Under the pieces are notes generated by a model. It made no database searches, was not told the DNA's origin, and was given only the letters and a program-made list of their open reading frames with translations. A DNA stretch of 64,000 nt. It comes from Escherichia phage PHB11. The position numbers and the translations under genes are program-made. Location of the stretch: the sequence record MK524176.1, one strand, 5' to 3'. Shown piece by piece: positions 13,431 to 64,000 of the stretch (position 1 is the stretch's first letter; each line of letters opens with the position of its first letter).

Positions 13431-13459
13431 TTTACAGGGGCTTTGTAGCCCCTTTTAAG
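13431..13459 (+). terminator. Hairpin with T-run between the two fibre genes
   Basis: CTTTACA-GGGGCTTTGTAGCCCC-TTTTAAG; same TTTACA + GGGGCTT...AAGCCCC unit as the early-region cassettes. Confidence 0.4.
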
Positions 13460-20007: not shown

Positions 20008-20051
20008 AATAACCTCAAAGCTATATTAAATTTTGTATTACATTGAGTATA

Positions 20052-20080
20052 AAAATAGGCTATAACACCTGACTTGTCAA
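20052..20080 (-). promoter_or_regulatory. Sigma70-like promoter for the gene starting at 20007
   Basis: On the - strand: TTGACA, 17 bp spacer, TATTTT, about 45 nt upstream of the ATG. Confidence 0.4.
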
Positions 20081-20115
20081 CAGATTTTATAGCTTATTTG
20101 GCAGATTTTTTATAA

Positions 20116-20390
20116 GGCTACTGCCATCCTTCCATACATTACCTTACCTTACCTCACCTGACCTGACCTGACCCTACCTAACATTACCGTGCCACACCTC
20201 ACTTAAAAACCCTCTTAAAAGACTCTTAAGTGATGTAAGTCTCATTTTAATGTAGCTGAGACTAACTACCCATACCTGACCGAACATTACTAGGCCTTAC
20301 CAGACACTACAGAACAGGACAGCACCGCACCTTATTAAAAGACCCTGTTTAAAGACCTTTTAAAAAGGAGCCTCCGAAGAGGCTACCTAG
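20116..20390. repeat. Non-coding pentamer-periodic element E1 (copy 1 of 2)
   Basis: Starts GGCTACTGCCATCC; runs of NNACC pentamers (TTACC TTACC TTACC TCACC TGACC TGACC TGACC ...); conserved blocks C, B, A shared with 21519-21793; ends in GAGCCTC-CGAA-GAGGCTC hairpin. Confidence 0.7.
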
Positions 20391-20395
20391 TCAAC

Positions 20396-21518: not shown

Positions 21519-21793
21519 GGCTACTACCATCCACCCATACCGTGCCACACCACACCGGACTATACCATGCCCAACCCTACTACACCAGACCTTATTAAAA
21601 GACCCTCTTAAAAGACCTTTTAAAAAGGTAAGTCTCATTTTAATGTAGTTGAGACTAACTACCCATACCTTACCGCACCGGACATTACCGGACCGCACAT
21701 CACCGCACCAAACCAAACATCACATTACCTGACCTCACCGCGCCTTACCATACCTCACTTAAAAACCCCTCTTAAAGATTCTTAAGTGATGCT
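21519..21793. repeat. Non-coding pentamer-periodic element E2 (copy 2 of 2)
   Basis: Starts GGCTACTACCATCC; NNACC pentamer runs (TTACC GCACC GGACA TTACC GGACC GCACA TCACC GCACC AAACC ...); same blocks as E1 but order A-B-...-C. Confidence 0.7.
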
Positions 21794-21821
21794 GGTGAGT
21801 ACCCGTTGGTTTATGCTGCTC

Positions 21822-21849
21822 AGTATACTCACCAAATTTTCTATGTCAA
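21822..21849 (-). promoter_or_regulatory. Sigma70-like promoter just downstream of the ligase stop, reading into E2 and the cassette
   Basis: On the - strand: TTGACA, 16 bp spacer, TATACT. Confidence 0.45.
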
Positions 21850-21855
21850 CAACTT

Positions 21856-32730: not shown

Positions 32731-33771
32731 ATGGAGAAGTATACGCTAACAAAACTTCCCGATTCAGTTACACATGTCTTTATTGACTCTGACAGTATTG
32801 CCTATAAAGGTGCTTGTGTAGTTGAGAAAGCAAAATATAAATATGTCAATAAACTCACAGCAGAAGAATCTGAACCATTTGATAATGCAAAAGATGCCGC
32901 AAGATGGTTAGCAGACCAGAGAATCCTTGTAGAAGAGCTTGGCCTAGCATTTGATGAAGATGAATGGGAAAGACAGACTTGGAAAGAAGCTAAGAGTGAA
33001 AAAGAAGCTATCATGGCTACTCAGCAGGTTCTTCAGGAATGGCTTAAGGTTGTTGGTAAAGAAAGAACTTGGGTAGGTTACTTAACAGAGAAAGGTGTGC
33101 ATAAGCATAAAGACGTTAAAGGTCTTGAGCACCAATATCAAGGTAACCGTAAAGATGCTGTCACACCAACACACTTAGTTGCTTGTCGTGAATATCTCCT
33201 GTCAAGACCAGAGTTCAAACTCTTAAAGGGTGGCTTCGAAGCCGACTCAATCGTTATTGCTAAAGCTGAAAAGATGGGTAAGAAAGCTGCTCTTATGAGT
33301 ATTGACAAAGACCTTCGACAAGCTGAAGGTACTTATTGTATTGATATGACTTATGAAAAGTCACCACTAATTTTTATTGCTGATAATAATGTTGGTGATA
33401 TCTGGGATTGCCCTATCAAATCAAAACCAAAAGCTGCAAAAACAGTTGGTGTAGGTTTTAAATTCTTGTGTTATCAGGCTGTTGCTGGAGATAATGCAGA
33501 CAACTACTTCGGACTTAAAGGTGCTGGAAAAGTAGCTGTGATGAATGCTTTAGATGGTAAAGAGACTTATAAAGAGTGTCTTGATGCTATCTATGAACTC
33601 TATGCTAAAAAAGAGTCTTATACCTATGTATCATGGGATGGACAGACTGTTACCAAAACACCATTAGAGTTAATGGAACAGCATTTCTGGATAGCATATC
33701 AAGAGAGAAATCCAAAAGATAATTTCTCTTTTAAGAAATATAATTGGGAGCCGTGTATGAATGAAGATTAA
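32731..33771 (+). CDS. 5'-3' exonuclease (T7 gp6-like)
   Basis: Blocks VFIDSDSIAYKGA, MSIDKDLRQ and GDNADNYFGLKGAGKV matching the T7 gene 6 exonuclease pattern. Confidence 0.6.
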   Translation: MEKYTLTKLPDSVTHVFIDSDSIAYKGACVVEKAKYKYVNKLTAEESEPFDNAKDAARWLADQRILVEELGLAFDEDEWERQTWKEAKSEKEAIMATQQVLQEWLKVVGKERTWVGYLTEKGVHKHKDVKGLEHQYQGNRKDAVTPTHLVACREYLLSRPEFKLLKGGFEADSIVIAKAEKMGKKAALMSIDKDLRQAEGTYCIDMTYEKSPLIFIADNNVGDIWDCPIKSKPKAAKTVGVGFKFLCYQAVAGDNADNYFGLKGAGKVAVMNALDGKETYKECLDAIYELYAKKESYTYVSWDGQTVTKTPLELMEQHFWIAYQERNPKDNFSFKKYNWEPCMNED

Positions 33772-46049: not shown

Positions 46050-46070
46050 GGGGCTTTAAGCCCCATTTTG
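46050..46070 (+). terminator. Short hairpin between Prs-like and NAMPT-like genes (weak terminator/processing signal)
   Basis: GGGGCT-TTA-AGCCCC followed by ATTTTG. Confidence 0.3.
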
Positions 46071-46084
46071 AGAGAGATTAAAAG

Positions 46085-47866
46085 ATGACTAAATCACTTT
46101 ATGCAGTACCAGCAGGTTTAAACGCAGATGCTTACAAATCTGGTCACATTTACCAGTATCCTAGCGCAACAGAATACTTGATGTTCAACCTGACACCACG
46201 TAGTGATAAATGGTTTAACAGTCCTTTAGCAATTGACGGTGTGGTGGCTTTTGGTATTCAACGTTTTGTTAAAGACTACTTAATAGACCACTGGAACGCC
46301 ACCTTCTTCGAACGTGACAAAGAAGAAGCAATTGACGAAATCTTAGAAGTCATGAACGGTGTTCTGGGTAAAGATGCTATTGGCCGTGAACATTGGGAAG
46401 CACTTCACGACTTAGGTTATCTACCAGTTGAAGTATACGCTGTAGAAGAAGGCACAGTTGTTCCTATGCGTGTACCAATGATTGTCTTCCAGAACACTGT
46501 TTCAGGTTTCCATTGGGTAGCGGGGTATCTGGAAGATGCTTTCTCTGCTGAGATTTGGAAGGCTTGTACCATTGCAACTATTGCATTGCACTACAAACGT
46601 ATCTGTAAGAAGTGGTCTGACCTTACTTGTGATAACGACTTACATTTGCCTTATCAGTGCCATGACTTTGCTATGCGTGGTATGTCCGGCTTTACCGATG
46701 ACGCATTTAACGCTGTAGGCCACTTAACCAGCTTTAAAGGAACTGATAGCTTCCCTGCTGTATATACAGCTAAACGCATCTATGGACAGTCCTACCCAAT
46801 CTCTGATATTGGTAGCTCTGTACCAGCCACTGAGCACTCTGTAATGTGTGCAAACATTGCTTGGGAAGGTGGTAATGAGTTGATTGAAGAAGAAAGACGC
46901 TTTAAAGGTGAGTTACAGACCTTCCGTCGTTTCTTAACAGAAACTTACCCAACTGGTATTGCAAGTGTTGTTTCAGACACTTATAACTTTTGGAGAACTG
47001 TGTCAGAAATCTTACCAGCACTTCGTAAAGAGATTATGGAACGTGATGGCAAACTGGTCATTCGTCCTGACTCTGGCGACCCTGTACATATTGTCACAGG
47101 TTATAAAGCAATCCACTTAGAGTGTGCTAAAAAGGCTTATTACGAACACCTAAGCAAGCTGGAAGCCAGCGACACAATGCTGAATGCTGTTCTGAACATG
47201 AAGCTTGAAAACATCAACTATGGTATTGCTGGATGGCTACTGTCAGAAGGCTACGAAATGGTTGTTGACAGAGAAGACTTTGAAGTTGCTGATACAGTGC
47301 TGTTGAAAAATGCTTATATGGTTGGTTCTGCAAACGTTGTAACACGTCCTGTAGCAGAGATTGATGGGGCTATTAAGACCCTGTATAACATCTTTGGAGG
47401 GACTATCAACTCTAAAGGTTTTAAGGTACTGGATGAGCACATCGGCCTTATTTATGGTGACTCTATCACGTTGGAACGTGCAAACGAAATCCTTAAGCGT
47501 TTGTATGAAATGGGTTTTGCAAGCTCTAACGTAGTGTTTGGTGTAGGTTCTTACACTTACCAGTATATGACTCGTGACACCTTTGCATTTGCTGTCAAAG
47601 CAACTCTTGCAAGCATTGGTGGTAAAGAGATTATGCTTGCAAAAGACCCTAAAACAGATAGTGGTGTTAAGAAGTCTGCTTTTGGTGGTGTAGCACCTAT
47701 GTGGGATGGTGATAAGCTGAAAGCTGTAGATGGCTATGGATTCCAGAGCTTTGAAGATGTACTTGAGCATCCAGCTTGTGCTTTACGTTTAGTCTTTAGC
47801 GAATCTGAGCAGTTTGGCTACACAACTCTTGGTGATATTCGAAATAATATTGACAAGCAACTCTAA
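46085..47866 (+). CDS. Nicotinamide phosphoribosyltransferase (NAMPT) family protein; candidate Namat-like enzyme
   Basis: 593 aa with NAMPT signature block HLTSFKGTDSFPA and GDS-containing C-terminal region. Confidence 0.7.
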   Translation: MTKSLYAVPAGLNADAYKSGHIYQYPSATEYLMFNLTPRSDKWFNSPLAIDGVVAFGIQRFVKDYLIDHWNATFFERDKEEAIDEILEVMNGVLGKDAIGREHWEALHDLGYLPVEVYAVEEGTVVPMRVPMIVFQNTVSGFHWVAGYLEDAFSAEIWKACTIATIALHYKRICKKWSDLTCDNDLHLPYQCHDFAMRGMSGFTDDAFNAVGHLTSFKGTDSFPAVYTAKRIYGQSYPISDIGSSVPATEHSVMCANIAWEGGNELIEEERRFKGELQTFRRFLTETYPTGIASVVSDTYNFWRTVSEILPALRKEIMERDGKLVIRPDSGDPVHIVTGYKAIHLECAKKAYYEHLSKLEASDTMLNAVLNMKLENINYGIAGWLLSEGYEMVVDREDFEVADTVLLKNAYMVGSANVVTRPVAEIDGAIKTLYNIFGGTINSKGFKVLDEHIGLIYGDSITLERANEILKRLYEMGFASSNVVFGVGSYTYQYMTRDTFAFAVKATLASIGGKEIMLAKDPKTDSGVKKSAFGGVAPMWDGDKLKAVDGYGFQSFEDVLEHPACALRLVFSESEQFGYTTLGDIRNNIDKQL

Positions 47867-47880
47867 AAGTATATGATAAG

Positions 47881-47905
47881 AGGCTCCTACGGGAGCCTTT
47901 TTAAT
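47881..47905 (+). terminator. Intrinsic terminator
   Basis: AGGCTCC-TAC-GGGAGCCT hairpin followed by a T-run. Confidence 0.6.
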
Positions 47906-47919
47906 TTCTGGAGAAGATT

Positions 47920-48255
47920 ATGAAAATCAAAGAAATGAATATCAATATTGTCTTAGAAGAACGTTGGGAGAACATCAAGAAGCCTGAAAATGGTCATAAG
48001 TTCCTCAACAAAATCTTAGTAGCAGCTAAAGAAGAACTGACTGGCAAGGTTGCAGCAGCAATCACAATAAAGGTCTGTGTAAAAGGTCTTCCAGACAATC
48101 ACCAATTTGCACTTGACGAGTTTAAAGAAAGCTTCTACAATCCAAACAAACAGATGCTTGAAAGTAACTTTGCAGTATCTACAAGTATCGTCCATGACAG
48201 AAGCTTTATCCTTTACAAGAATATGAGAGGTGAGTCATGCAAGCATATTGGATAG
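47920..48255 (+). CDS. Hypothetical protein
   Basis: 111 aa ORF. Confidence 0.35.
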   Translation: MKIKEMNINIVLEERWENIKKPENGHKFLNKILVAAKEELTGKVAAAITIKVCVKGLPDNHQFALDEFKESFYNPNKQMLESNFAVSTSIVHDRSFILYKNMRGESCKHIG

Positions 48256-48414
48256 AAATTTTACTGTCACTTGGTAGTGTAGCAGTGTTTGTTTACCTTC
48301 TTTGCAAGTACTATGCAGAGCACAAAAAATGTGACTTCTGTAATGGAGAAGGTTATACAAGAGCAGGTTGTTGCCCTATGTGTGGTGGTTCTGGTAAAAT
48401 GTTTAATAAGTAAT
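48238..48414 (+). CDS. Small membrane zinc-ribbon protein (not in ORF track, 58 aa)
   Basis: MQAYWIEILLSLGSVAVFVYLLCKYYAEHKKCDFCNGEGYTRAGCCPMCGGSGKMFNK: hydrophobic helix plus CxxC...CxxC. Confidence 0.3.
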
Positions 48415-48441
48415 TTAACAGTAAACTAAGAGGAAAGTATT

Positions 48442-50808
48442 ATGCGCATGGTAAATGACCACGCAGAAGTGATTAAGAGTTCAACTTCTTTAGAGACATC
48501 TCAAGCACAGATTACAATGACACCTGAAATGTTCAGCCTTCTGAGTTCTGGTGTATATACCTTTAAAGAGCGAGCAGTAATTCGTGAACTGTCATGTAAC
48601 GCAGTAGATGCTCAGAAAGAAGCTGGAAAAGAGGACATCCCGTTCCATGTGCATTTACCTACTCGTTTTGAGCCTTACTTTGAAGTTCGTGATTTTGGAA
48701 CTGGATTGACTCATGATAAAGTTATGAGTTTGTATCTAAATTACGGGGCTTCTACGAAGAATGACTCTAATGATTACATTGGTGCAATGGGTATCGGTTC
48801 AAAATCTCCATTTGCAATCGCTCAGTCATTCACAGTATCTAGCTATGTTGATGGTGTTGTTAATAAGTACTCTGTTTACCTTGAGAATGGCATCCCTCAA
48901 GTAACTAAGCTGACCACCAACCCAACAAAAGAACCTAATGGTTTAGCTGTACGTGTAGCAGTTGCTGACCATCGTATTTCAAAGTTCTTTGAAGAAGCTG
49001 GTCACGTATACTCATACTTTGCTGTAAAACCAGAAAGTAATATCGAGTATGACGATGTATTAGCAGACATGAATGTCATTGCCCGTGAAGAAGGTGTTTA
49101 TGATGCCATGATTCACAAACAAAGCTGGCGTTCTAGTGGCAACAGGACAGAGTTTAATGTGGTGATGGGTAACATTGCCTACCCAGTTAACATGGAAGCA
49201 TTACTTGGTGATGATTTCTTCAAAGTCTTGCCAGAGTTTTTCCGTAGGAGCGTAGACCTTGTAAACATCTATATGCCTATTGGTTCAGTTGCTATTGCAG
49301 CTTCTCGTGAAGCATTGCAGATGAATGATACAACAAAAAATGTTATCATTGAGGCTACTAAAAAGATAACTGAAGCAATTACAAAGGATGTTATCAAGAA
49401 AGTTAATAGCCAACCTACACTCATGGATGCTGCACAGGCTTATGCTGAGTTACGTTTAAACTCACGAGAGATGTTTAATGCTGTGTGTCCAAAACTAGAG
49501 TGGGGAGGCGTTAAGCTTGATTCTTTGGAAGAAGAATTGCTAAACATTCGTCGTGGAATTATCTACGCAGAAGACGGCTCAGTTATCTATGAACGTGATG
49601 GTAAAGGTAATATTAAGGTTGATAGGAACGGAAACAATATCCCTAAAGTAGATTATCTTTATAATCCAGTTGCTTATGTTAAGTTCAACTCTTTAGAAAG
49701 TAAGATTCGTGCAACAGCACTTTCCTACACTCAAGAGGCAAGTATGTTCAATATCTTTGGCGCAATGCGTAAAAGTCAAATTGAACAGTTTTTGTTTGTT
49801 ATAAATGACCGTCGCAATAAAAATGGTACTGAGAAGACTGTAGGACGCAATCAGATTCTGCGTGGTGCATGTCGAGACTATGCCAGCGAGTCAAGTCTGT
49901 TTCACAGATACAATGGTATTGTCTTTGTATTCTCTAATGAGGAAGAGCTAGATGATTTAATCAATCTGCACAAACTTGATAAAAGCTTGTTAAAGATTGT
50001 GAAGATGTCTGATAAGGAACATCATTATCAGCGTAAAGAAGCTGTAAGAGGTGTTGTAAAACTTTGGAAAGCTGTTCCAGCAGAAGGTGTAGCTTCATAC
50101 AAAGAGGTGTCAGAAGACTTAGATACGATTGAGGAGCCTCAGCTTTATATTAAGGCAGTAGGCGACACAGTTGATGGCGAATGTTTTTGCTCATCTCCAG
50201 AAGATGTAGCTAAGTCAGTTGCCAATGTCATTGGAAAGACAGTATATGTTTTCCGAAAAGCAAATTGGAAAAAGATACCAGAAGACTGGATTGAAGTAGA
50301 TGAGAAGCTCTTGAACGACAGCTTAACTGATGTTCACTGGATTAATCATAACAGGTATATGACACGTATCTATATGAATGGTGTCCTAGACCTGACAAGC
50401 AGTTGGATTATTGCCAGAAACTTTACGTTCAATAACAGGAAGATTTCTCGTGGTTATTGCTATTCACGAGACACAAACAAAACTATCTTCTTAGAAGGTA
50501 ATGAAGATGCTGTTGAGGCAATGTTTGGTAAAATCCAATACGTTGCTGCACCGTTTGCATACACTTATACTGTTAGCAGGTTGCAAACTTTGAAAGAATG
50601 CCTTGACAATGATACAAAGCTGTACAAGAAAATCAAGAAAGCTGGTGACCGTATGGTCATTAAGGTGACAAACTATCTTTCAAAAAGAAAACAAGAAAAC
50701 TTCTTGCTTTCTCATTTAGATTGGAATAAAGTGTCACCCATCGAAGTGAGTAAGTTCTTAGGCTTTGATGTGAAGTGTGTTCCAGAAGGGACTACAATTT
50801 ACGATTAA
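48442..50808 (+). CDS. rIIA: rIIA-like protein with GHKL-type ATPase domain
   Basis: Bergerat-fold boxes RELSCNAVDA (N box), DFGTGL (G1), GAMGIGSKS (G2); followed by an rIIB homologue. Confidence 0.6.
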   Translation: MRMVNDHAEVIKSSTSLETSQAQITMTPEMFSLLSSGVYTFKERAVIRELSCNAVDAQKEAGKEDIPFHVHLPTRFEPYFEVRDFGTGLTHDKVMSLYLNYGASTKNDSNDYIGAMGIGSKSPFAIAQSFTVSSYVDGVVNKYSVYLENGIPQVTKLTTNPTKEPNGLAVRVAVADHRISKFFEEAGHVYSYFAVKPESNIEYDDVLADMNVIAREEGVYDAMIHKQSWRSSGNRTEFNVVMGNIAYPVNMEALLGDDFFKVLPEFFRRSVDLVNIYMPIGSVAIAASREALQMNDTTKNVIIEATKKITEAITKDVIKKVNSQPTLMDAAQAYAELRLNSREMFNAVCPKLEWGGVKLDSLEEELLNIRRGIIYAEDGSVIYERDGKGNIKVDRNGNNIPKVDYLYNPVAYVKFNSLESKIRATALSYTQEASMFNIFGAMRKSQIEQFLFVINDRRNKNGTEKTVGRNQILRGACRDYASESSLFHRYNGIVFVFSNEEELDDLINLHKLDKSLLKIVKMSDKEHHYQRKEAVRGVVKLWKAVPAEGVASYKEVSEDLDTIEEPQLYIKAVGDTVDGECFCSSPEDVAKSVANVIGKTVYVFRKANWKKIPEDWIEVDEKLLNDSLTDVHWINHNRYMTRIYMNGVLDLTSSWIIARNFTFNNRKISRGYCYSRDTNKTIFLEGNEDAVEAMFGKIQYVAAPFAYTYTVSRLQTLKECLDNDTKLYKKIKKAGDRMVIKVTNYLSKRKQENFLLSHLDWNKVSPIEVSKFLGFDVKCVPEGTTIYD

Positions 50809-50813
50809 AGTGT

Positions 50814-50843
50814 TTGACAAGGGGCTTCAAAGCCCCTTAAAAT
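50814..50843 (+). promoter_or_regulatory. Promoter-like element with a hairpin in the spacer, upstream of rIIB
   Basis: TTGACA, then AGGGGCTTCAAAGCCCC (GGGGCT/AGCCCC stem), then TAAAAT. Confidence 0.4.
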
Positions 50844-50887
50844 AGCCTCACAAAATAATTTATTAACTAACAAGAGAGAGTAATAAG

Positions 50888-51997
50888 ATGACTACTAAAA
50901 CTAAAGCACAGATTGACGCAGAAATTTACAAACTGGTTAAAGAAGGTAAGCTGACTAAAACAGCTATTGCACAGAAGTTCAATACTTCAACCCGTTCAGT
51001 TGGTCGTGCTGTAGAGCGCCATGAAGCAACCTTAAAGGGTAAGAAAAAGATAGCTTCTAAACCAGCTACGAAGACTTTGAAGCAAGTTGCTAAATCAGTT
51101 AAAAAGAAAACTGGAAAACCAGTTGAAAAGGCCGTTAAAGACACTGTACAAAAGGCTCCGGTAAATAAACTGCACGAAGCTATGCAGAAAGATAACAAGA
51201 TTGAGTACATGATTACTGGCGACTCTGTAATTATGACTTACGGTTCAGAATCTGAAATTGTTGAGTCTACTCATCCGAACTATCAAGAGATTGTAGTTCA
51301 TGTTGTGAAAGGTGAGTTCAAGAAAGCCTTTGAACTGATGAACATTCGTAAGTCTATCGAAAACTTTACTCAGGGTGCTATCACAATCAAAGGTGACAAG
51401 TTATTCTACGGTGCTGTTGAGATGCGTTCTACTCTGGTTGACCGTATCCTTCACATGATGAAGACTGGTGATAAAGGTTTTGAACGACTTGTAATGTTCT
51501 TCGAAAAACTGATGGAAAACCCATCTAAAGACTCTGTAGAACAACTTTGGGGATTTGTATCTCACCTTGATGTTGAAATTGATGAAGAAGGCTACATCAT
51601 TGGTTGGAAGAAAGCCTCTACTCGTGAAGGCAAGCTGGTTGACTCTCACACCTACAAAGTACCTAATGATTTGGGTAACATTGTAGAAATGCCACGTTGG
51701 ATGGTTGATAACAACCGTAACGTGACTTGCTCTCAGGGTCTTCATGTTGGTGCTTGGGACTATGTCCGTTGCTTCTCAGGTGATACAATTCTGAAGGTTC
51801 GTGTCCATCCACGAGATGTTGTATCTGTTCCAACTGATTACAACGATATGAAGATGCGTTCGTCCCGTTATGAAGTTGCAGCAATCGTTGATAATCAACG
51901 TAAAGTGCTGAAAGCATGGGACGGTAAGACTGAAGCTTTGCATGTCATCGTTGGCACTGCTGGTGAACTTATCTCTCAACGTAAGCGTGAAATCTAA
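50888..51997 (+). CDS. rIIB: rIIB-like protein
   Basis: Blocks KLFYGAVEMRSTLVDRIL and KVRVHPRDVVSVPTDYNDMKMRSSRYEV closely match my recollection of T4 rIIB. Confidence 0.7.
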   Translation: MTTKTKAQIDAEIYKLVKEGKLTKTAIAQKFNTSTRSVGRAVERHEATLKGKKKIASKPATKTLKQVAKSVKKKTGKPVEKAVKDTVQKAPVNKLHEAMQKDNKIEYMITGDSVIMTYGSESEIVESTHPNYQEIVVHVVKGEFKKAFELMNIRKSIENFTQGAITIKGDKLFYGAVEMRSTLVDRILHMMKTGDKGFERLVMFFEKLMENPSKDSVEQLWGFVSHLDVEIDEEGYIIGWKKASTREGKLVDSHTYKVPNDLGNIVEMPRWMVDNNRNVTCSQGLHVGAWDYVRCFSGDTILKVRVHPRDVVSVPTDYNDMKMRSSRYEVAAIVDNQRKVLKAWDGKTEALHVIVGTAGELISQRKREI

Positions 51998-52014
51998 TAA
52001 GTAATTTCTTAAAA

Positions 52015-52036
52015 GGCTGCTTCGGCGGCCTTTTTT
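52015..52036 (+). terminator. Intrinsic terminator after rIIB
   Basis: AGGCTGC-TTCG-GCGGCCT hairpin followed by TTTTTT; a TATAAT hexamer follows at 52061-52066. Confidence 0.55.
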
Positions 52037-52097
52037 ATTTGTATTTTGTGCAGAGTGCTGTATAATTGTTGTCACGATAAACTAAACAGGAGAACCA

Positions 52098-52646
52098 ATG
52101 AAGAAGTTGATTCTAGGTTTGTGCTTAATGTTTACAGCACACTTATCTTATGCAGTTGACTGCCCAGAGCTATCAATTAGCCAAAAAGTAAACATGTTAA
52201 AAGCTTACCAGTATGGTGAGAATAATATGGGTAAAGGTTGGGGTATCACTCTAGCTGCTATAGCCTTACAAGAGTCAGAGTTAGGTCTGAAGGTAGAGAA
52301 TAAAAAGACCCATGACTATGGTATCTTCCAGAATCACTTGAAGACTGTTGTAAAGCGTAACAAAATCAGTCCTAATGTGGCTAAAAAGAAACTCTTAAAA
52401 GACTTTGACTATGCTGCAAAGGAAACACACAAAGAGCTTGAGTTTTGGACTAAGGTACATGGTCAACCAAAGTCAAAGAAGACTTTACAAAAAGTTTTAG
52501 CGTCATATAATGCTGGGTATTCGTACAAAATCCCTAAAGCTAAGAAATACTCTCAAGATGTTTACAACAATATGAAAGTCATCGCTCAATGTGAATTTGC
52601 AACAAACATTTCTAAGGTAAACCATGAAAAAATTAAGAAAGTCTGA
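52098..52646 (+). CDS. Secreted lytic transglycosylase (SLT domain); endolysin candidate
   Basis: Signal peptide MKKLILGLCLMFTAHLSYA; SLT motifs ALQESELG, YGIFQ, SYNAGYSY. Confidence 0.6.
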   Translation: MKKLILGLCLMFTAHLSYAVDCPELSISQKVNMLKAYQYGENNMGKGWGITLAAIALQESELGLKVENKKTHDYGIFQNHLKTVVKRNKISPNVAKKKLLKDFDYAAKETHKELEFWTKVHGQPKSKKTLQKVLASYNAGYSYKIPKAKKYSQDVYNNMKVIAQCEFATNISKVNHEKIKKV

Positions 52647-53319
52647 TGAAGTCCTGTGCCATGCTTACGACTTGCACCCTCATGAGTTAGGTCTTGATTC
52701 CTGTGTATGGACTCCAGAACAGTGCAGAGATTTTGAAGATACTGCAAGAGAAGTTGTATGTTCACTTGAAGAGTTCCACACATCAGAACCAATTGTGAGC
52801 GTTGTGGACAAAGAGACTGGACAATCTATAGGTGTAAGACGTGACAGTTTAGTCATAGTCAATAAAGACCTTGTAGAAAAAGGTAACCTCATCTTAGCAG
52901 ACATTGATGGTGTTCTTACAAATTTTAATCACGAAGATTGCTCAACAGAATTGATTGATGGGTCATTTTCACAGTACACTAATTTGCTTGACTCTGTAAG
53001 AGCAAAACCAACGTATGTTTTCAATATTATTGATGCAATTGCTAACCATGCTGCCATTGGACTCTTGACAGCGAGGGGTGAATCTCAGAGAATACCTACT
53101 GAGATGTTTTTAAGGCATTACATAGAGCATGATTACATGCTTTTCATGCGTGGTTTTGGAACTAACTCTATAGATGCAGAAAGTTTGAAAGTGAGGATGA
53201 TTCAGTCTTGCATTCTTCCTTACTTTAATATAGTATGTTTTATAGAAGATACAGAGAAGAATGTTCAGAAGGTAAACAGAATCCTTCCGCACATTAAAAC
53301 TATGTTAGTAAAACATTGA
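52624..53319 (+). CDS. HAD-superfamily 5'(3')-deoxyribonucleotidase-like phosphatase
   Basis: Motif I LADIDGVLTNF (DxDGVLxxF) typical of NT5C/HAD nucleotidases. Confidence 0.45.
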   Translation: MKKLRKSDEVLCHAYDLHPHELGLDSCVWTPEQCRDFEDTAREVVCSLEEFHTSEPIVSVVDKETGQSIGVRRDSLVIVNKDLVEKGNLILADIDGVLTNFNHEDCSTELIDGSFSQYTNLLDSVRAKPTYVFNIIDAIANHAAIGLLTARGESQRIPTEMFLRHYIEHDYMLFMRGFGTNSIDAESLKVRMIQSCILPYFNIVCFIEDTEKNVQKVNRILPHIKTMLVKH

Positions 53320-56854: not shown

Positions 56855-56945
56855 AAAAGTACTTTACAGGGGGCTTAAAAGCTGATATCTTAAGCCCCAG
56901 ATAAAGAGCTTTACTAAACTAACCCTTAAACTAGGAGATTCAAAA
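56855..56945 (+). promoter_or_regulatory. Early cassette, class A
   Basis: AAGTACTTTACA, hairpin GGGGCTTAA-N11-TTAAGCCCC (TTTACA-17-TATCTT overlaps it), AGATAAAGAGCTTTAC, TIR ...CTAGGAGATTCAAAAATG. Confidence 0.45.
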
Positions 56946-57326
56946 ATGGCTTATCGTGCACCTAAATTCATCAACAAAGACAACTTTCGCAACGCACTGG
57001 AGAAGTCACTTGATGAAAATTTTAAAGGTAATATTATCGTTGTTCACGCATTCAATTTTAAGTATGATGTAAACGGGAATAGAATCAACCATTACACAGC
57101 AACCATGTTAGATGGTACGCTATCAAGTGAAAAAGCTGTACTGAATGCACTTGCAGGACGTGGTAAAAACCTGATAAGATGCGATAAGAGACGTTATCAG
57201 GGTGGCGCATATGGTTATGATGATGCTGTTTATCATCTTGAAAATATGGGCTATTCAGTGGAAAAAGCTGGAGTGTCTCAAATAATCGGCAGTGACGGCT
57301 ATGTGACAATTTTCAAAATTAACTAA
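56946..57326 (+). CDS. Small early-region protein, unknown
   Basis: 126 aa ORF preceded by a class A cassette. Confidence 0.45.
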   Translation: MAYRAPKFINKDNFRNALEKSLDENFKGNIIVVHAFNFKYDVNGNRINHYTATMLDGTLSSEKAVLNALAGRGKNLIRCDKRRYQGGAYGYDDAVYHLENMGYSVEKAGVSQIIGSDGYVTIFKIN

Positions 57327-57414
57327 TAAAGTACTTTACAGGGGGCTTATAGTTCGATAAAGTAAGCCCCAGATAAAGAGCTTTACCACTAAATCCTAAA
57401 TTGGAGATTCAAAA
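57327..57414 (+). promoter_or_regulatory. Early cassette, class A
   Basis: TAAAGTACTTTA palindrome overlapping the upstream stop, GGGGCTTA...TAAGCCCC hairpin, conserved TIR. Confidence 0.45.
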
Positions 57415-57705
57415 ATGGCTATTATTAAAAACGTTGTAATTCCTGCAAAAACTCGTGATGACGCTCGCATCATGGCGAAAAAGTTAGGCGGGAAAGTGGT
57501 TGACAACGGAAAACAAACTGCTGTAAGGTGGAACGTGAAGGCGGATAAACAAATGAATTTAAAAAATTCACCAATAAACCTTTTTACATGTGTAAACACT
57601 ATCGGGAAAACGAATGTATACACTAAAAAGGCATATATCAGACGCATCGCCATGACGTCACCTATTCGCACAATGAGAAGTCATGCAAAGCTGAAAATTA
57701 AGTAA
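57415..57705 (+). CDS. Small early-region protein, unknown (basic)
   Basis: 96 aa ORF preceded by a class A cassette. Confidence 0.45.
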   Translation: MAIIKNVVIPAKTRDDARIMAKKLGGKVVDNGKQTAVRWNVKADKQMNLKNSPINLFTCVNTIGKTNVYTKKAYIRRIAMTSPIRTMRSHAKLKIK

Positions 57706-57795
57706 TAGAGTACTTTACAGGGGGCTTAAAAGCTGATATCTTAAGCCCCAGATAAAGAGCTTTACCACTCAATCCTTAAACTAGGAGATTCAAAA
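57706..57795 (+). promoter_or_regulatory. Early cassette, class A
   Basis: GAGTACTTTACA, GGGGCTTAA...TTAAGCCCC hairpin, conserved TIR. Confidence 0.45.
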
Positions 57796-58308
57796 ATGAA
57801 AACTGTAGACGCTACCTTTGAAGTTGTAAAAGAAAAATTTTCCATCATTTACGAAGCTGTCAATTGCTACGAAGCAAGCCATAATCTTGATAATTGGAAG
57901 TTTACAGATGACCATCAAGGCGGTGTGACTATTAAAAACCCCAACTGTCAGCGTAATGGATTTAAATATGCAATTCCTTTACATTACAGCCTTAAACAGC
58001 TTTCAATTGACTATGCAAAACAAGGCCGGGAAAATCCATCGAAAGAGGCTTACATCAGCTTACAGAAAGAACTAGAAAGAGATTTAGAGGCTTCAGAATA
58101 TAACATCGCCGCGAAAGTTGTAGATGCAAACGGTAGCACGGTTTTAGAGAGTTTTTATATTGGTTATGCTTTCGATTGGTGCTACAGTGACGGCGATGAT
58201 TTAGATGACAGACTAAAAGAGGAAGTGAACAACGCAGACGCAGAATCTGAAGTATTAGAACGCTTGGAAGCATTAAAAGATTCAGTGATGAATATCTTTA
58301 AGAACTAA
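57796..58308 (+). CDS. Small early-region protein, unknown (acidic C-terminus)
   Basis: 170 aa ORF preceded by a class A cassette. Confidence 0.45.
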   Translation: MKTVDATFEVVKEKFSIIYEAVNCYEASHNLDNWKFTDDHQGGVTIKNPNCQRNGFKYAIPLHYSLKQLSIDYAKQGRENPSKEAYISLQKELERDLEASEYNIAAKVVDANGSTVLESFYIGYAFDWCYSDGDDLDDRLKEEVNNADAESEVLERLEALKDSVMNIFKN

Positions 58309-58399
58309 ATAGATTTCTTTACACGGGGCTAACAAGCGGATATGATAGCCCCAGATAAAGAGATTTATCAAATTAACCCTTAAACTAGGAGATTCAAAA
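58309..58399 (+). promoter_or_regulatory. Early cassette, class A variant
   Basis: TTTACA, 17 bp spacer, TATGAT with compensating hairpin GGGGCTA...TAGCCCC; conserved TIR. Confidence 0.45.
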
Positions 58400-58696
58400 A
58401 TGAAATTATCAAATAAAGTTAGGGAAAACCTTAGCAAATTACTCAACAAAATTGATTTTATAGAGACATCAAGGAATAGTCATGATGTTATGGAATGGTT
58501 ACACGGCAAAATAAAAGGCCGTCGTGTAGTGATTTGCTTATGGAATAGTTGCAGGGAGTATAAAAAGCCTGTATTGCAAATTAATGTTTATGATGATACT
58601 TTTAAAAGTCCTGTAAAGTCTAAAAGCGATTTATTAGAATCCTATGAGATAACTGTAAATGGCAAAGTATCACGTAAAGAGGAAACACCATGTTAA
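58400..58696 (+). CDS. Small early-region protein, unknown
   Basis: 98 aa ORF preceded by a class A cassette. Confidence 0.45.
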   Translation: MKLSNKVRENLSKLLNKIDFIETSRNSHDVMEWLHGKIKGRRVVICLWNSCREYKKPVLQINVYDDTFKSPVKSKSDLLESYEITVNGKVSRKEETPC

Positions 58697-59022
58697 TGAC
58701 TGGTATCACTGCAATCATTGCCATTTTCGCGCTATATAAGGCATATAAAGCCTATAATCTAGCAAATAAGGCAATCACACAGCAAGTTAGCAATAACCTT
58801 GTAGAGAGCTTTCTAGGGCGTTTAAGTGATGAGCAAATAAAGCGGCTAGAGATGAGCTTCAGATATAAAGCGAAAACCTATCAGATAAGTGACATCTTCA
58901 AAGATGATTTCCAGTTAGTTGATGATTATAATTCTCTGATAAATGCTTTAAACATCAGTGACTTGAAAGACTATCACGCTGTAATTGTTCAAGAATTGAG
59001 CAAACGAAAACAAAGTGTTTGA
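58690..59022 (+). CDS. Small early-region protein, unknown
   Basis: 110 aa ORF overlapping the upstream stop; N-terminal hydrophobic helix. Confidence 0.4.
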   Translation: MLMTGITAIIAIFALYKAYKAYNLANKAITQQVSNNLVESFLGRLSDEQIKRLEMSFRYKAKTYQISDIFKDDFQLVDDYNSLINALNISDLKDYHAVIVQELSKRKQSV

Positions 59023-59113
59023 CACTGATTTTTAGATAGGTTAAATTACACATCAACGGGGAGGGGATGACCTTCCCCACTAAATAAAGTCCTTAAACTA
59101 GGAGATTCTAAAA
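59019..59113 (+). promoter_or_regulatory. Early cassette, class B (promoter, 5' UTR hairpin, TIR)
   Basis: TTGACA, 17 bp spacer, TAAATT, ATCAACGGGGAGGGGATGACCTTCCCC hairpin, ACTAAATAAAGTCCTTAAACTAGGAGATTCTAAAAATG. Confidence 0.5.
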
Positions 59114-59272
59114 ATGTTTTGTGCAGGTGATAAAGTTGTCTGGAATGATATAGATGACGGTTTATGTACGAAAGTTGTTGTTATCTTAGAAATTGATTAT
59201 ATCACTGGTGTTGCAACTGTAGCAGATAATGATATAATCTTTGATGTCTTAATTAGTGAACTGTCAAAATAA
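59114..59272 (+). CDS. Small early-region protein (not in ORF track, 52 aa)
   Basis: ATG right after a class B cassette; translation MFCAGDKVVWNDIDDGLCTKVVVILEIDYITGVATVADNDIIFDVLISELSK. Confidence 0.4.
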   Translation: MFCAGDKVVWNDIDDGLCTKVVVILEIDYITGVATVADNDIIFDVLISELSK

Positions 59273-59297
59273 AGTCCTTAAACTAGGAGATTCAAAA
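59273..59297 (+). promoter_or_regulatory. TIR-only module (no own promoter), operonic with 59114..59272
   Basis: AAAGTCCTTAAACTAGGAGATTCAAAAATG immediately after the upstream stop. Confidence 0.45.
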
Positions 59298-59570
59298 ATG
59301 TACACTACTAACAACGGTCGCACCTTAAATGCAACCCTACGCCACTATGTGAACGGTGTAATGCACTTCGAGGATTTACAAGCTGAACAGCACATTTTGG
59401 ATTGGCAACTTGCAGGATTCCAAAAAACTGCTACCGGATACGGGAAAAAGATTCCAACTAGCTGGAAAGTATACTACGAAGGCCGTTTGCGTAGAATTTA
59501 TCAAGATGTATGCGGCAATAGCGCATCAAGTTACATCATAGTAAAAGGCAAAAAGCTGCATTTAGCATAA
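59298..59570 (+). CDS. Small early-region protein, unknown
   Basis: Start set at MYTTNNG (59298); the track start 59256 reads through the conserved TIR. Confidence 0.45.
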   Translation: MYTTNNGRTLNATLRHYVNGVMHFEDLQAEQHILDWQLAGFQKTATGYGKKIPTSWKVYYEGRLRRIYQDVCGNSASSYIIVKGKKLHLA

Positions 59571-59655
59571 AGTACTTTACAAGGGGCTTATAAGTCTGTA
59601 CAGTAAGCCCCAGATAAAGAGCTTTACCACTAAATCCTAAATTGGAGATTCAAAA
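59571..59655 (+). promoter_or_regulatory. Early cassette, class A
   Basis: TAAAGTACTTTA palindrome, GGGGCTTA...TAAGCCCC hairpin, conserved TIR. Confidence 0.45.
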
Positions 59656-60060
59656 ATGGCTATTAATAATCGTGAGTTATCTATCTTAAAAGCACGTTTG
59701 ACCGTTAACCGGATTAATGTTATCACATCAGCAGCACCGGATGAAACACTGCAAAACATTATTGGGAAGATTCAAAGTGTTATCTTAGACGTTGAAAGCG
59801 TAAAAAACTCATTGGCTGACGTTGCAGCCGGTATCACGCTAGACGGTGCACAACATGAGATGGCCGACATGTTAGGCAAATCAAAGGTAATGAATAAAGA
59901 ATTAGACTTGAAAATGTTTCGATTTGCTGTTAAAGTGTGGCTATCCGTCGAGTATGACGCTAATTTTGCAATCGCTGATTTCTTTGCCACTTGGTTACAA
60001 CGTAACTTAACAAATCATGATTTCCGTGATGTCTGTGATGCAATCTACGCAGAACTTTAA
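59656..60060 (+). CDS. Small early-region protein, unknown
   Basis: 134 aa ORF preceded by a class A cassette. Confidence 0.45.
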   Translation: MAINNRELSILKARLTVNRINVITSAAPDETLQNIIGKIQSVILDVESVKNSLADVAAGITLDGAQHEMADMLGKSKVMNKELDLKMFRFAVKVWLSVEYDANFAIADFFATWLQRNLTNHDFRDVCDAIYAEL

Positions 60061-60160
60061 AAAGATGTTGACACTGATTTTTAGATAGATTAAATTACTC
60101 ATCAACGGGGAGGCAATAACCTCCCTACTAAATAAAGTCCTTAAACTAGGAGATTCTAAA
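60061..60160 (+). promoter_or_regulatory. Early cassette, class B
   Basis: TTGACA (60068-60073), 17 bp spacer, TAAATT, ATCAACGGGGAGG...CCTCCC hairpin, conserved TIR. Confidence 0.5.
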
Positions 60161-60358
60161 ATGGCTATTATTAACGGCTTAACCATTGAAACAACACACA
60201 TCAAAGATATCAAAGTTGGTGATGTAGTCCTTTCCCACGGCGTAGAAAAAACTGTCACTGCAAAGGATATCAAAGAGGATTCTTTCATGGGTAGAACTCT
60301 CTTCGGTGATTCTTATTGCTTAGGTTATCTTGCAGTTTTAAAAGTTGTCAAAAATTAA
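60161..60358 (+). CDS. Small early-region protein, unknown
   Basis: 65 aa ORF preceded by a class B cassette. Confidence 0.4.
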   Translation: MAIINGLTIETTHIKDIKVGDVVLSHGVEKTVTAKDIKEDSFMGRTLFGDSYCLGYLAVLKVVKN

Positions 60359-60450
60359 GTAATAAAGTACTTTACAAGGGGCTTAAAAAGTTGGTATCTT
60401 AAGCCCCAGATAAAGAGCTTTACACAGTCCTTAAACTAGGAGATTAAAAA
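60359..60450 (+). promoter_or_regulatory. Early cassette, class A
   Basis: TAAAGTACTTTACA, GGGGCTTAA...TTAAGCCCC hairpin, TIR variant CTAGGAGATTAAAAAATG. Confidence 0.45.
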
Positions 60451-60699
60451 ATGATGAATTATTTAAACATTCCCGACACTTGCAAACTGTTAACGCAACC
60501 AGAAAATTTAGGTAAGGCTTACCTATACCATATGCCAAATAATACGGCAAAAACTTATAGTTACACTGTTAACCGATTCACGGCATACGCTGCAAAAAAC
60601 GGTTACAAGGTTGTTACTCAAAAAGTAACACTGTTTACAACTGTTGAGGAACTCCCCACGGTTGCAGTTAAACTGATTTTTTCAAAGAAAACTAAATAG
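60451..60699 (+). CDS. Small early-region protein, unknown
   Basis: 82 aa ORF preceded by a class A cassette. Confidence 0.45.
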   Translation: MMNYLNIPDTCKLLTQPENLGKAYLYHMPNNTAKTYSYTVNRFTAYAAKNGYKVVTQKVTLFTTVEELPTVAVKLIFSKKTK

Positions 60700-60784
60700 A
60701 TTTCTTTACACGGGGTTATCAAGCTGATAAGATAGCCCCAGATAAAGAAATTTATCAAATAAATCCTAAACTGGAGATTCAAAA
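60700..60784 (+). promoter_or_regulatory. Early cassette, class A variant
   Basis: TTTACA, 17 bp spacer, TAAGAT with hairpin GGGGTTATC...GATAGCCCC; conserved TIR. Confidence 0.45.
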
Positions 60785-61359: not shown

Positions 61360-61380
61360 AGCCCCTTGTAGGGGCTTTTA
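61360..61380 (+). terminator. Intrinsic terminator inside the early array
   Basis: GCCCC-TTGTA-GGGGC hairpin followed by TTTT. Confidence 0.55.
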
Positions 61381-63127: not shown

Positions 63128-63165
63128 TCAACGCAACGGGGCTAAATAGCCCCAGATACCTGAAC

Positions 63166-63191
63166 AGCCCCTATTTAAAGGGGCTTTTTTA
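63166..63191 (+). terminator. Intrinsic terminator closing the early array
   Basis: AGCCCCT-ATTTA-AAGGGGCT hairpin followed by TTTTTT. Confidence 0.6.
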
Positions 63192-63529: not shown

Positions 63530-63994
63530 CTTGTTAGTGTCTTAAAAGTATGTTATAGGGGCTTAAAAGTTACTTTGAAGTAGCTTAAAAGTTACTTTGA
63601 AGTAGCTTAAAAGTTACGTAAATGCTAGCCCCCTTAACATTTTCTTAACAATTTCTTAACAAACCCTACATAGTTATGCTTTTAAGGCACTTGTTAGCAA
63701 CTTGTTAGCCCCTTGTTAAATCTCTGTTAATACCTCGTAAAAGCCTTGTAAGAGCCTTTGGCATAGCCTTTAAAGCCCCTGTAAAGCCCTATAAAGAGCT
63801 TTCTATATAGTTGGGGTGTAATTACTAGAAAGAGACTAAAAAGAGCTTATAAGGAGCTATAAAGGGCTTTTAAGAGGGCTATTTAAAAGGTCACTAAGAG
63901 GGAAAGGGAACGATAAGAAAAGAGATAGTGACCATGTTAACAGCTTGTTAAAAAGATTAAACACTTGTTAGGAACTTGTTAATTATCTTAACAA
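63530..63994. repeat. Cluster of CTTGTTA(R) motifs in both orientations in non-coding DNA
   Basis: CTTGTTAG/CTTGTTAA at 63530, 63690, 63701, 63712, 63944, 63964, 63975; inverted CTTAACAA at 63644, 63655, 63987. Confidence 0.6.
63561..63617. repeat. Tandem direct repeat, 22 bp unit, about 2.6 copies
   Basis: GCTTAAAAGTTACTTTGAAGTA at 63561 and 63583, partial copy at 63605. Confidence 0.7.
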
Positions 63995-64000
63995 AATAAC

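Follow-up and report, generated by a model that had tools for sequence, protein, structure and literature searches.

Organization of the rII locus

The rII locus described here lies in a 64,000-nt window, the whole stretch of DNA that was analyzed, which comes from a Felixounavirus (Felix O1-like) genome, that of phage PHB11. The locus consists of rIIA and, directly downstream, rIIB, which are separated by an intergenic gap of 79 nt (50809-50887); the coordinates of the features are given in Table 1. The comparison of rIIA with PHROG 612 ("RIIA lysis inhibitor") revealed a match over the full length with an E-value of 8e-190, and rIIB matched PHROG 609 with an E-value of 2e-88. Alignment to the T4 proteins, the check proposed in the original prediction, was significant in both cases: BLASTP showed 32% identity between rIIA and T4 rIIA over 306 residues (E 2e-37), and the resemblance of rIIB to T4 rIIB that had been noticed earlier was borne out by 36% identity over 331 residues (E 2e-60). 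rIIA is labelled as such in phages that are 96-97% identical, annotations of both genes are found in dozens of near-identical phages, and the gene content flanking the gap was the same in all relatives retrieved.

rIIA had been recognized by its GHKL ATPase boxes, and the PHROG 612 match, a motif alignment and a profile comparison all led to the same identification. In particular, the motifs ELSCNAVDA, DFGTGL and GAMGIGSKS align with T4 and RB49, and an N-terminal profile of four rIIA sequences matched the ATPase domains of Hsp90, TRAP1 and HtpG (E ~9e-8). It was only through this profile that the GHKL structures were reached, since a single-sequence search of the PDB with rIIA gave no match; in Pfam, HATPase_c stayed below threshold in the single-sequence search (E 0.058), and no family was assigned to the full-length protein. 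HTH families were sub-threshold for PHB11 rIIB, whereas residues 1-60 of T4 rIIB scored above the Pfam cut-off.

Table 1. Features of the rII locus, with positions counted from the first nucleotide of the window.
Feature	Position	Strand	Description
rIIA	48442-50808	+	ORF of 788 aa; N-terminal ~300 aa correspond to a GHKL/Hsp90-like ATPase domain
-35 hexamer TTGACA	50814-50819	+	follows GTGT, a context shared with other strong promoters of the window
Hairpin AAGGGGCT-tcaa-AGCCCCTT	50819-50838	+	perfect 8-bp stem; fills the promoter spacer
-10 hexamer TAAAAT	50838-50843	+	TAGAAT in most relatives
Predicted transcription start (A)	50850	+	7 nt past the -10 hexamer; placed by sigma-70 geometry
Shine-Dalgarno-like purine-rich segment AGAGAGAG	50873-50880	+	7 nt upstream of the rIIB ATG
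rIIB	50888-51997	+	ORF of 369 aa; HTH-like N-terminal segment (residues 10-45)
Intrinsic terminator	52011-52034	+	10-bp stem followed by a T-run, downstream of rIIB

Predicted promoter upstream of rIIB

The two hexamers in the gap are separated by a spacer of 18 nt, AGGGGCTTCAAAGCCCCT, and agree with the consensus at 11 of 12 positions. The site is intergenic and lies 44 nt upstream of the rIIB ATG, with a Shine-Dalgarno segment and the ATG downstream; the Shine-Dalgarno-like segment varies little among Felixounavirus loci (alignment A2). We found seven sites with a match of at least 11/12 on both strands of the window, compared with 2.4 +/- 1.7 in random sequence from a Markov-1 model, an enrichment of about three-fold, and the sites are located upstream of genes. 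From the random-sequence rate, the chance of one landing on the sense strand within the rIIA-rIIB gap was estimated at about 1e-3. The GTGT-TTGACA context is common to the rIIB promoter, the early-array promoter at 59019 and a site at 31407. The original prediction had placed TTGACA, the hairpin and TAAAAT at 50814-50843 with every coordinate correct, and had described a hairpin within a spacer of 17-18 bp; the hairpin is indeed found there, in a spacer that measures exactly 18 nt in PHB11. The optimum for sigma-70 promoters is 17 nt, whereas the Felixounavirus rIIB promoter has 18, and its G/C-rich spacer is expected to weaken it. We infer the activity of this promoter and its start site from the sequence.

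The same promoter had already been predicted, independently, by BPROM in phage UAB_Phi87 (TTGACA/CCTTAGAAT at 27,984; PMC4837284 Table S1). At the other end of rIIB, the terminator is identical to the Felix O1 terminator t2 (PMC3185647 Table 2), and together with the predicted promoter it would bracket a monocistronic rIIB unit. In Felix O1, RT-PCR placed the peak of ORF2 (rIIB) at 10 min and that of ORF1 (rIIA) at 25 min (PMC3185647 Table 3); these coarse data are consistent with separate control of the two genes.

The hairpin within the spacer

The hairpin stem reaches one base into each hexamer (the last A of the -35 and the initial T of the -10) and leaves TCAA as the loop. The folding energy was -11.6 kcal/mol for the spacer alone and -15.4 kcal/mol for the whole gap (z = -2.4). 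The frequency of perfect hairpins of at least 7 bp in 20-nt segments was 0.08% for random and 0.13% for real sequence, and chance is unlikely to explain either the promoter (about 1e-3) or the hairpin (about 1e-3). The form in which a whole hairpin is enclosed in the spacer occurs once in the window and is absent from the rest (25.6 kb) of a genome that is 97% identical.

A classical intrinsic (Rho-independent) terminator was rejected, as the G/C-rich stem is present but a U-tract is not. The tail, TTAAAATA in PHB11 and TTAGAATA in relatives, yields UUAAAAU or UUAGAAU; with so poor a U-tract, the hairpin is unlikely to be an efficient intrinsic terminator. The terminator scan called sites at 47878 and 52011 and did not call the hairpin, and an Rfam search of 47800-52200 (E <= 1) gave no match at it. 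We also rejected a role on the minus strand, where there are no credible genes and the tail is not T-rich. The terminators annotated in phage Barry lie on the opposite strand inside rIIA and not at the hairpin.

Conservation and covariation in related phages

The column entropy of the gap, calculated from 27 distinct sequences, some of them from lineages whose rIIB identity is 76-84%, was lowest in the arms and the -10 hexamer (0.03-0.10), compared with 0.84 in the loop and 0.36-0.58 in the flanks. Across the Felixounavirus loci and these lineages, conservation within the gap is highest in the hexamers and the stem, and the predicted anatomy of a promoter with a hairpin is also conserved in relatives. 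TTGACA was kept in 26 of 27 intergenic sequences outside Kolesnikvirus and a divergent lineage, L030; the remaining sequence (L026) has TTGACT. A 1-nt change of the spacer from 18 to 17 nt in relatives leaves both hexamers intact, and the orientation of the loop flips freely among close relatives. A genome-contig scan for rIIB relatives confirmed no locus, and a second pattern scan of viral contigs for loop variants gave no additional contigs.

In alignment A2, 98.6% of the cells are paired and five of the seven pairs have changed on both sides, and none of 500 shuffles scored as high; the independent covariation events are few, because only two divergent lineages (four sequences) carry them. 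The stem covaries in register (GGGGCT/AGCCCC, GGGCTG/CAGCCC and AAGTGGTC/GGCCACTT), and a single stem mismatch was present in only 2 of the 31 distinct sequences. In the Erwinia Kolesnikvirus lineage, the hairpin is kept without flanking promoter hexamers, and in L030 the promoter is shifted and the hairpin straddles the -10 hexamer. The hairpin thus stays paired through double changes where the promoter is displaced or absent, which argues that it is probably selected independently of the promoter. Judged from these patterns, it is probably an independent RNA-level element at which the rIIA unit ends and on which the promoter is superimposed, and the earlier view of the hairpin as a part of the promoter is probably not right, since the hairpin persists, with compensatory changes, where the hexamers do not hold their place.

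Comparison with the class A early cassettes

The original prediction equated this design with that of the class A early cassettes, an element of ~55 nt that is repeated in seven copies (56863-60705) and associated with small ORFs. We found the two to be related but not the same. In both, TT(T/G)ACA abuts a GGGGCT 5' arm that is paired with an AGCCCC 3' arm, and both are intergenic and followed by a Shine-Dalgarno segment and an ATG. In contrast, the class A arms flank the -10, enclosing a -10-like TAnnnT sequence in a loop of 11-13 nt, and an additional outer helix (CTTTA/TAAAG and its flanks) takes in the class A -35 sequence, TTTACA. A spacer that contains the entire hairpin is found only in the rIIB element, which in this respect has no counterpart in the genome.

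Comparison with PeSL cassettes and other rII loci

PeSL (promoter-early stem-loop) cassettes have been described in RB49/phi1, PST and nt-1 (Arbiol et al. 2010, PMC2839356; Comeau et al. 2014, PMC4122927). The interval between -35 and -10 is among the two commonest positions of their stem-loop, and promoter as well as terminator/attenuator activity was shown for PeSLs in lacZ reporters (PMC2839356). We inspected an intergenic PeSL of RB49, TTGACG-CGGGGAGAAATCCCCGT-TATACT at 25338, and two others of this form at 33335 and 43031, and found their geometry to be identical to that of the rIIB element. Both kinds of element are intergenic and begin right after a stop codon, carry consensus sigma-70 hexamers with a 17-18-nt spacer filled by a G-tract/C-tract stem-loop (in the rIIB element an 8-bp GGGG...CCCC stem), and have a Shine-Dalgarno segment and an ATG at the 3' end. 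In PeSLs the -35 is preceded by an AT-rich tract; at rIIB, the 17 nt before the -35 hexamer (ATTTACGATTAAAGTGT) have an A+T content of 71%, the genome as a whole is also A+T-rich, and these nucleotides overlap the rIIA stop codon.

Some differences were present. The PeSL hosts belong to the Straboviridae, while the host of the rIIB element belongs to the Ounavirinae; PeSLs are repeated and flank ORFans in hyperplastic regions, whereas the rIIB element, which lies before a conserved gene, was found as a single copy in the window plus the other 25.6 kb covered in a relative. Nothing at rIIB pointed to the cassette-mediated recombination or the mini-circles of PeSLs. The elements that are repeated in PHB11 (class A and class B) have their stem-loops in other positions. 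The finding at rIIB is correct but ordinary, because T4-like phages carry the same arrangement in their PeSLs.

The homologous genes of T4 are in the same order as in PHB11, but their gap is 11 nt by the record coordinates, and in the Vequintavirinae phage KB57 rIIA and rIIB overlap. A promoter/hairpin module as a general rII feature was ruled out for this reason: the T4 and KB57 loci are without it, and a gap of 79 nt is characteristic of the Ounavirinae. Transcription of T4 rIIB proceeds both by read-through and from promoters of its own, which lie toward the end of rIIA. An engineered promoter of Horwitz and Loeb from 1988, with a palindrome between -35 and -10, reportedly responds to supercoiling; that construct is artificial and has a longer palindrome, and the rIIB element resembles it only in palindrome position, with no indication of cruciform extrusion.

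A probable composite element and alternative explanations

We consider it probable that the gap is a composite element of PeSL architecture, in which a host sigma-70 promoter is superimposed on a G/C-rich stem-loop. Transcripts arriving from upstream, likely from a promoter at 47850 and reading through two small genes and rIIA, would fold the 8-bp hairpin just past the rIIA stop codon. There the hairpin would be at most a leaky terminator or attenuator, because no U-tract follows, and a barrier that stops 3'-exonucleases and thereby sets the end of the rIIA mRNA; we infer this effect on RNA from the sequence. As duplex DNA, the same 20 bp would be a mere spacer of TTGACA-N18-TAAAAT, from which the host RNA polymerase would start at about 50850. 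The rIIB mRNA would lack the hairpin and end at the strong terminator downstream, and with its own start and terminator the expression of rIIB would be uncoupled from that of rIIA.

It is unlikely that the hairpin works alone, as a terminator, an attenuator or a stabilizer of the rIIA message, with hexamers that are no promoter and rIIB transcribed by read-through. The hexamer-less Kolesnikvirus hairpin and the suboptimal G/C-rich spacer would suit this explanation, as would the literature searched on Felix O1-like phages, in which we found no mapped transcript 5' or 3' ends. However, the hexamers are kept in at least four diverged lineages in which the intergenic bases around them, and indels, vary, they remain intact when the spacer shortens, and their 11/12 match would rarely arise by chance in the gap; the different peak times of rIIA and rIIB in Felix O1 also argue against it.

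We regard it as very unlikely that the promoter is functional and the hairpin a neutral passenger, left by recombination of a GGGGCT/AGCCCC cassette in a spacer whose sequence hardly matters. The junction TT(G/T)ACA-(A)GGGGCTT is common to the rIIB element, the class A cassettes and the terminator at 13436, and the free flipping of the loop agrees with such an origin, but no positions of the gap vary less than the stems, double changes preserve the pairing in L030 as well as in Kolesnikvirus, and stem mismatches are rare.

It is highly improbable that the palindrome acts as duplex DNA, either as an operator bound by a phage regulator or as a supercoil-driven cruciform, to turn off the rIIB promoter and the GGGGCT early cassettes later. 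A perfect palindrome does sit exactly between -35 and -10, GGGGCT occurs 21 times (6.1 expected) and AGCCCC 20 times (3.7 expected), these motifs adjoin the -35 in seven early cassettes, the rIIB N-terminus is HTH-like, and the recurrent loop flips suggest that the palindrome can fold as DNA; no temporal-control device is known in Felix O1 (PMC3185647). Against this, the half-site spacing ranges from 3 to 18 nt among the copies and fits a hairpin, not a protein dimer; ordinary T-run terminators at 13436, 61360 and 63166 are built from the same arms, and pairing but not sequence is conserved across lineages. Additionally, binding of rIIB to its own promoter palindrome was down-weighted because the putative recognition-helix residues (T33, S34, R36, S37, G39, R40, A41, E43, R44 and H45) are invariant across lineages in which the palindromes differ. 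Stems of 8 bp with loops of 4 nt are also poor cruciform formers. That all promoter-embedded GGGGCT/AGCCCC palindromes, in the rIIB spacer and the seven early cassettes, are DNA-level switches, whether operators or cruciforms, is a long shot; if true, they would supply the temporal control of host-polymerase promoters in Felix O1-like phages, a mechanism for which has so far been lacking.

Implications for rII transcription

The proposed composite element tells nothing about the function of the rII proteins, and its practical value is modest. It provides a concrete transcription map of the rII region for Felix O1-like phages, which are widely used in typing and biocontrol: the proposed map has a three-gene unit that extends to the hairpin, followed by monocistronic rIIB with its own promoter and terminator. 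It would also extend to the Ounavirinae a promoter/stem-loop composite so far described for T4-like phages. The hairpin that stands without hexamers in one lineage suggests how composites can arise, and the sequences are compatible either with the addition of hexamers to a 3'-end hairpin that was already there or with their loss from the hexamer-less lineage.

Identity of the gene pair

Many Felixounavirus phages (Felix O1-like, Ounavirinae) of Escherichia and Salmonella shared 96-97% identity with the 3.6-kb rII region, and their records already name both ORFs as rIIA and rIIB. The gene neighbourhood of the pair, which includes nadV, a PseT-like kinase and conserved hypothetical genes, agreed with the Felixounavirus map. 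The predicted rII pair was borne out by alignment to T4: T4 rIIA matched over the first ~300 residues (32% identity, E 2e-37), and T4 rIIB over 331 aa (36% identity, E 2e-60). The original prediction had also recognized rIIA by GHKL ATPase boxes. Consistent with this, the ELSCNAVDA, DFGTGL and GAMGIGSKS motifs aligned with rIIA of T4, RB49 and an Erwinia phage, and a profile of these four N-termini matched the ATPase domains of TRAP1, Hsp90, HtpG and Grp94 (E ~1e-7); with rIIA alone as the query, the Pfam and PDB searches were below threshold or without match. The 2010 annotation of Felix O1 took rIIA as the point at which to open the genome (PMC3185647); the gene identification is already known and nothing new.

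The rIIB N-terminus (aa 10-45) appears to resemble a helix-turn-helix (HTH) domain. In T4 rIIB, where the HTH-like segment spans aa 7-50, residues 1-60 scored above the Pfam thresholds for HTH_7 (27.9 bits, cut-off 23.8) and HTH_28 (26.7, cut-off 25). The window rIIB and its Ounavirinae relatives matched several HTH families, all below threshold, and the segment was almost invariant throughout the Ounavirinae.

Coordinates of the features discussed, in the window
Feature	Position	Details
Minus-strand block gaps	20008-20395, 21639-21855	non-coding
nadV	46085-47866	neighbour gene
Second promoter/terminator overlap	47850-47901	hairpin 47878-47901
rIIA	48442-50808	788 aa; PHROG 612 "RIIA lysis inhibitor", full length, E 8e-190
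Spacer hairpin	50819-50838	perfect 8 bp, 4-nt loop (50827-50830); spacer plus one base from each hexamer
rIIB	50888-51997	369 aa; PHROG 609, E 2e-88
HTH-like segment of rIIB	50915-51022	aa 10-45
Canonical terminator	52011-52034	3' of rIIB
PseT-like kinase	52624-53319	neighbour gene
Class A cassettes (n=7)	56863, 57335, 57714, 58318, 59576, 60371, 60705	early array, 56855-60784
Second cassette type	59019, 60068, 61626, 62188, 62784	early array
GGGGCT/AGCCCC examples	13436-13453, 46050-46064, 61360-61376, 63138-63153, 63166-63185	
22-nt tandem repeat	~63557-63618	~2.6 copies
Terminal-repeat match	~63636-64000	

Predicted promoter and hairpin in the rIIA-rIIB gap

The 79-nt gap reads, 3' of the rIIA stop, AGTGT-TTGACA-AGGGGCTTCAAAGCCCCT-TAAAAT-AGCCTCA... 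As predicted, a hairpin occupies the spacer between TTGACA and TAAAAT; the hexamers depart from the consensus at a single position (11/12) and the spacer is 18 nt. Promoter matches of at least 11/12 numbered seven in the window versus 2.4 +/- 1.7 in Markov-1 random sequence, and perfect hairpins of at least 7 bp made up ~0.1% of 20-nt windows. Because both are rare and they coincide in the sense orientation ahead of a gene, their combination is not due to chance. Exactly this promoter was called by BPROM in phage UAB_Phi87 (TTGACA / CCTTAGAAT at 27,984; PMC4837284 Table S1). The terminator 3' of rIIB is Felix O1 terminator t2 (PMC3185647); together with the predicted promoter it therefore brackets a monocistronic unit.

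Conservation and covariation

Gap sequences were gathered from 30 IMG/VR contigs, phage Barry and three Erwinia-phage (Kolesnikvirus-type) sequences (GenBank phage Ep030 and two IMG/VR contigs), and alignment A2 comprised 31 distinct gap sequences. Felixounavirus gaps read TTGACA-AGGGGCTT(CA or TG)AAGCCCCT-TA(G/A)AAT, and lineages with 76-84% rIIB identity, among them a contig matching Citrobacter phage Michonne, read TTGACA-GGGGCTG(A/C)AAAGCCCCT-TAGAAT, where the spacer is 17 nt. Column entropy over these 27 sequences was 0.03-0.10 in the arms and the -10, 0.84 in the loop, 0.36 in the leader and 0.58 in the upstream flank; the apparent variability of the -35 columns is a 1-nt register shift only. 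The distant lineage L030 (59% identity) contained TTGACA, 17 nt and TCTAAT, and its hairpin, of other sequence (AAGTGGTC...GGCCACTT), straddled the -10. In Kolesnikvirus (L033 2880-2998, L063, L066), the gap was only ~50 nt, with a GGGCTG-GAAA-CAGCCC hairpin (GNRA-type loop) 7 nt past the rIIA stop, around which flanking promoter hexamers were not recognisable. A candidate Kolesnikvirus promoter, TTGACA-17-TATGTT, was seen inside rIIA ~60 nt upstream, so that the hairpin would fall in the rIIB 5' leader.

On A2, 98.6% of cells were paired in register and five of the seven pairs had changes on both sides, the double changes deriving from two lineages only; none of the shuffled or slid controls came near the observed pairing. 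The simplest reading of these alignments is that the hairpin is probably under selection for itself where the rIIA cistron ends, with the promoter built around it, or shifted relative to it, in different lineages.

Close relatives among loci L001-L031 carried either GGGGCTTCAAAGCCCC or GGGGCTTTGAAGCCCC (window 50827-50830). Each is the exact reverse complement of the other, which means a flip of the entire palindrome, and neither intermediate (CG or TA) was seen among these loci. At least three haplotypes of the flanking sequence included both states (L009/L010, L015/L017, L003 vs L016/L028). The flips suggest that hairpin-mediated inversion, or very local recombination, may be recurrent.

Proposed function and alternatives

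As RNA, the spacer hairpin probably acts as a leaky terminator or attenuator for transcripts covering rIIA, and as their 3'-end protector, because its tail (UUAAAAU or UUAGAAU) is no U-tract and it was not among the sites called by the terminator scan. As duplex DNA, the same region would be the promoter spacer, so that polymerase could re-initiate at ~50850, and a rIIB message from this start would not carry the hairpin. We infer the rIIB promoter activity, the start site and the RNA effect of the hairpin; 5'-/3'-end mapping for Felix O1-like phages was not found in the searchable literature. Independent hints come from the BPROM call in UAB_Phi87 and from Felix O1 RT-PCR (PMC3185647 Table 3), where the peak came at 10 min for ORF2 (rIIB) and at 25 min for ORF1 (rIIA).

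A functional hairpin flanked by hexamers that do not work as a promoter is made less probable by the conservation of those hexamers. The palindrome might instead be a DNA-level operator or cruciform; however, half-site spacing varies from 3 to 18 nt, ordinary terminators use identical arms, pairing rather than sequence is conserved, and the HTH residues of rIIB do not vary between lineages whose palindromes differ, all of which weaken this explanation. Low stem variability and compensatory stem changes argue against a neutral passenger.

Comparison with PeSL and other rII loci

The nearest described system to our dual RNA-hairpin and promoter reading is PeSL (promoter-early stem-loop) of T4-like phages, in which a sigma-70 promoter is combined with a GGGG...CCCC stem-loop, the position of which defines five subclasses (PMC2839356; PMC4122927). 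The two most frequent subclasses include "between -35 and -10", and lacZ reporters demonstrated both promoter and terminator/attenuator activities (PMC2839356). The first 50 kb of RB49 contained three intergenic sites of the same geometry, in which the 17-nt spacer is wholly a 6-7-bp G/C hairpin (TTGACG-CGGGGAGAAATCCCCGT-TATACT, TTGACA-GGGGATCGGTGATCCCC-TATACT and TTGACG-GGGATCGCGAGATCCCC-TATACT). Whereas PeSL is a repeated, ORFan-flanking, recombinogenic cassette, the rIIB element is single-copy and precedes a conserved gene, and thus falls outside this narrower membership. The 11-nt rIIA-rIIB gap of T4 and the overlapping genes of the Vequintavirinae phage KB57 are too tight for a promoter/hairpin module. 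Among the rII loci compared, only those of Ounavirinae therefore have the intergenic design. The observation is confirmed and its interpretation largely right; the element itself is ordinary, since the gene pair is known, the promoter was predicted in a relative and the architecture was described and tested in T4-like phages. What is new is the promoter/stem-loop design in Ounavirinae, together with evidence for hairpin maintenance independent of the promoter.

Early-array cassettes and related repeats

The claim that the rIIB element has the same design as the class A early cassettes did not hold. In both, the -35-like hexamer adjoins the GGGGCT arm (TTTACA in class A). In class A, however, the AGCCCC arm lies past an 11-13-nt loop in which a TAnnnT hexamer stands 17-18 nt from TTTACA, and a second, outer helix (…CTTTA / TAAAG…) surrounds the whole cassette. 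Class A is thus a related style only, of the PeSL subclass "overlapping the -10".

Class A was predicted to fold into a ~55-nt two-part hairpin, with TTTACA within the outer helix, an inner helix of GGGGCTTA/TAAGCCCC and the -10-like TAnnnT in the apical loop. Pairing was predicted for both versions of the outer helix, …AAAGTACTTTA/TAAAGAGCTTT… and …AGATTTCTTTA/TAAAGA(G/A)ATTT…. The cassettes could be attenuators or RNA-processing sites besides promoters. A second cassette type has a TTGACA-like -35, 17 nt, TAAATT and, ~10 nt on, a GGGGAGG...CCTCCCC hairpin, followed by a conserved leader, ACTAAATAAAGTCCTTAAACTAGGAGATTC, ahead of each small ORF; this hairpin would lie at the transcript 5' end.

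Window-wide, GGGGCT occurred 21 times (6.1 expected) and AGCCCC 20 times (3.7 expected), mostly paired in hairpins. Terminator 13436 has TTTACA ahead, as the early cassettes do; hairpin 61360 is its arm-swapped form, and both share a TTTTAAGAGG tail.

Other features of the window

At the nadV end, a second promoter/terminator overlap was observed, in which the -10 of TTGACA-16-TATGAT (11/12) adjoins a canonical terminator hairpin with a T-run. Transcripts from this promoter would be without the 5' arm and would escape termination. The promoter is also BPROM-listed in UAB_Phi87, at 30,949 (PMC4837284). Two long gaps in a minus-strand gene block were full of short, degenerate ACCTNACC-type repeats (…CCTTACCTTACCTCACCTGACCTGACCTGACCC…), each gap with a promoter-like TTGACA site at one end. 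The window end (AACATTTTCTTAACAAT...) closely matched the start of the UAB_Phi87 direct terminal repeat (PMC4837284 supplement), so the window crosses the physical genome end; just before this match lie tandem copies of the 22-nt unit GCTTAAAAGTTACTTTGAAGTA.
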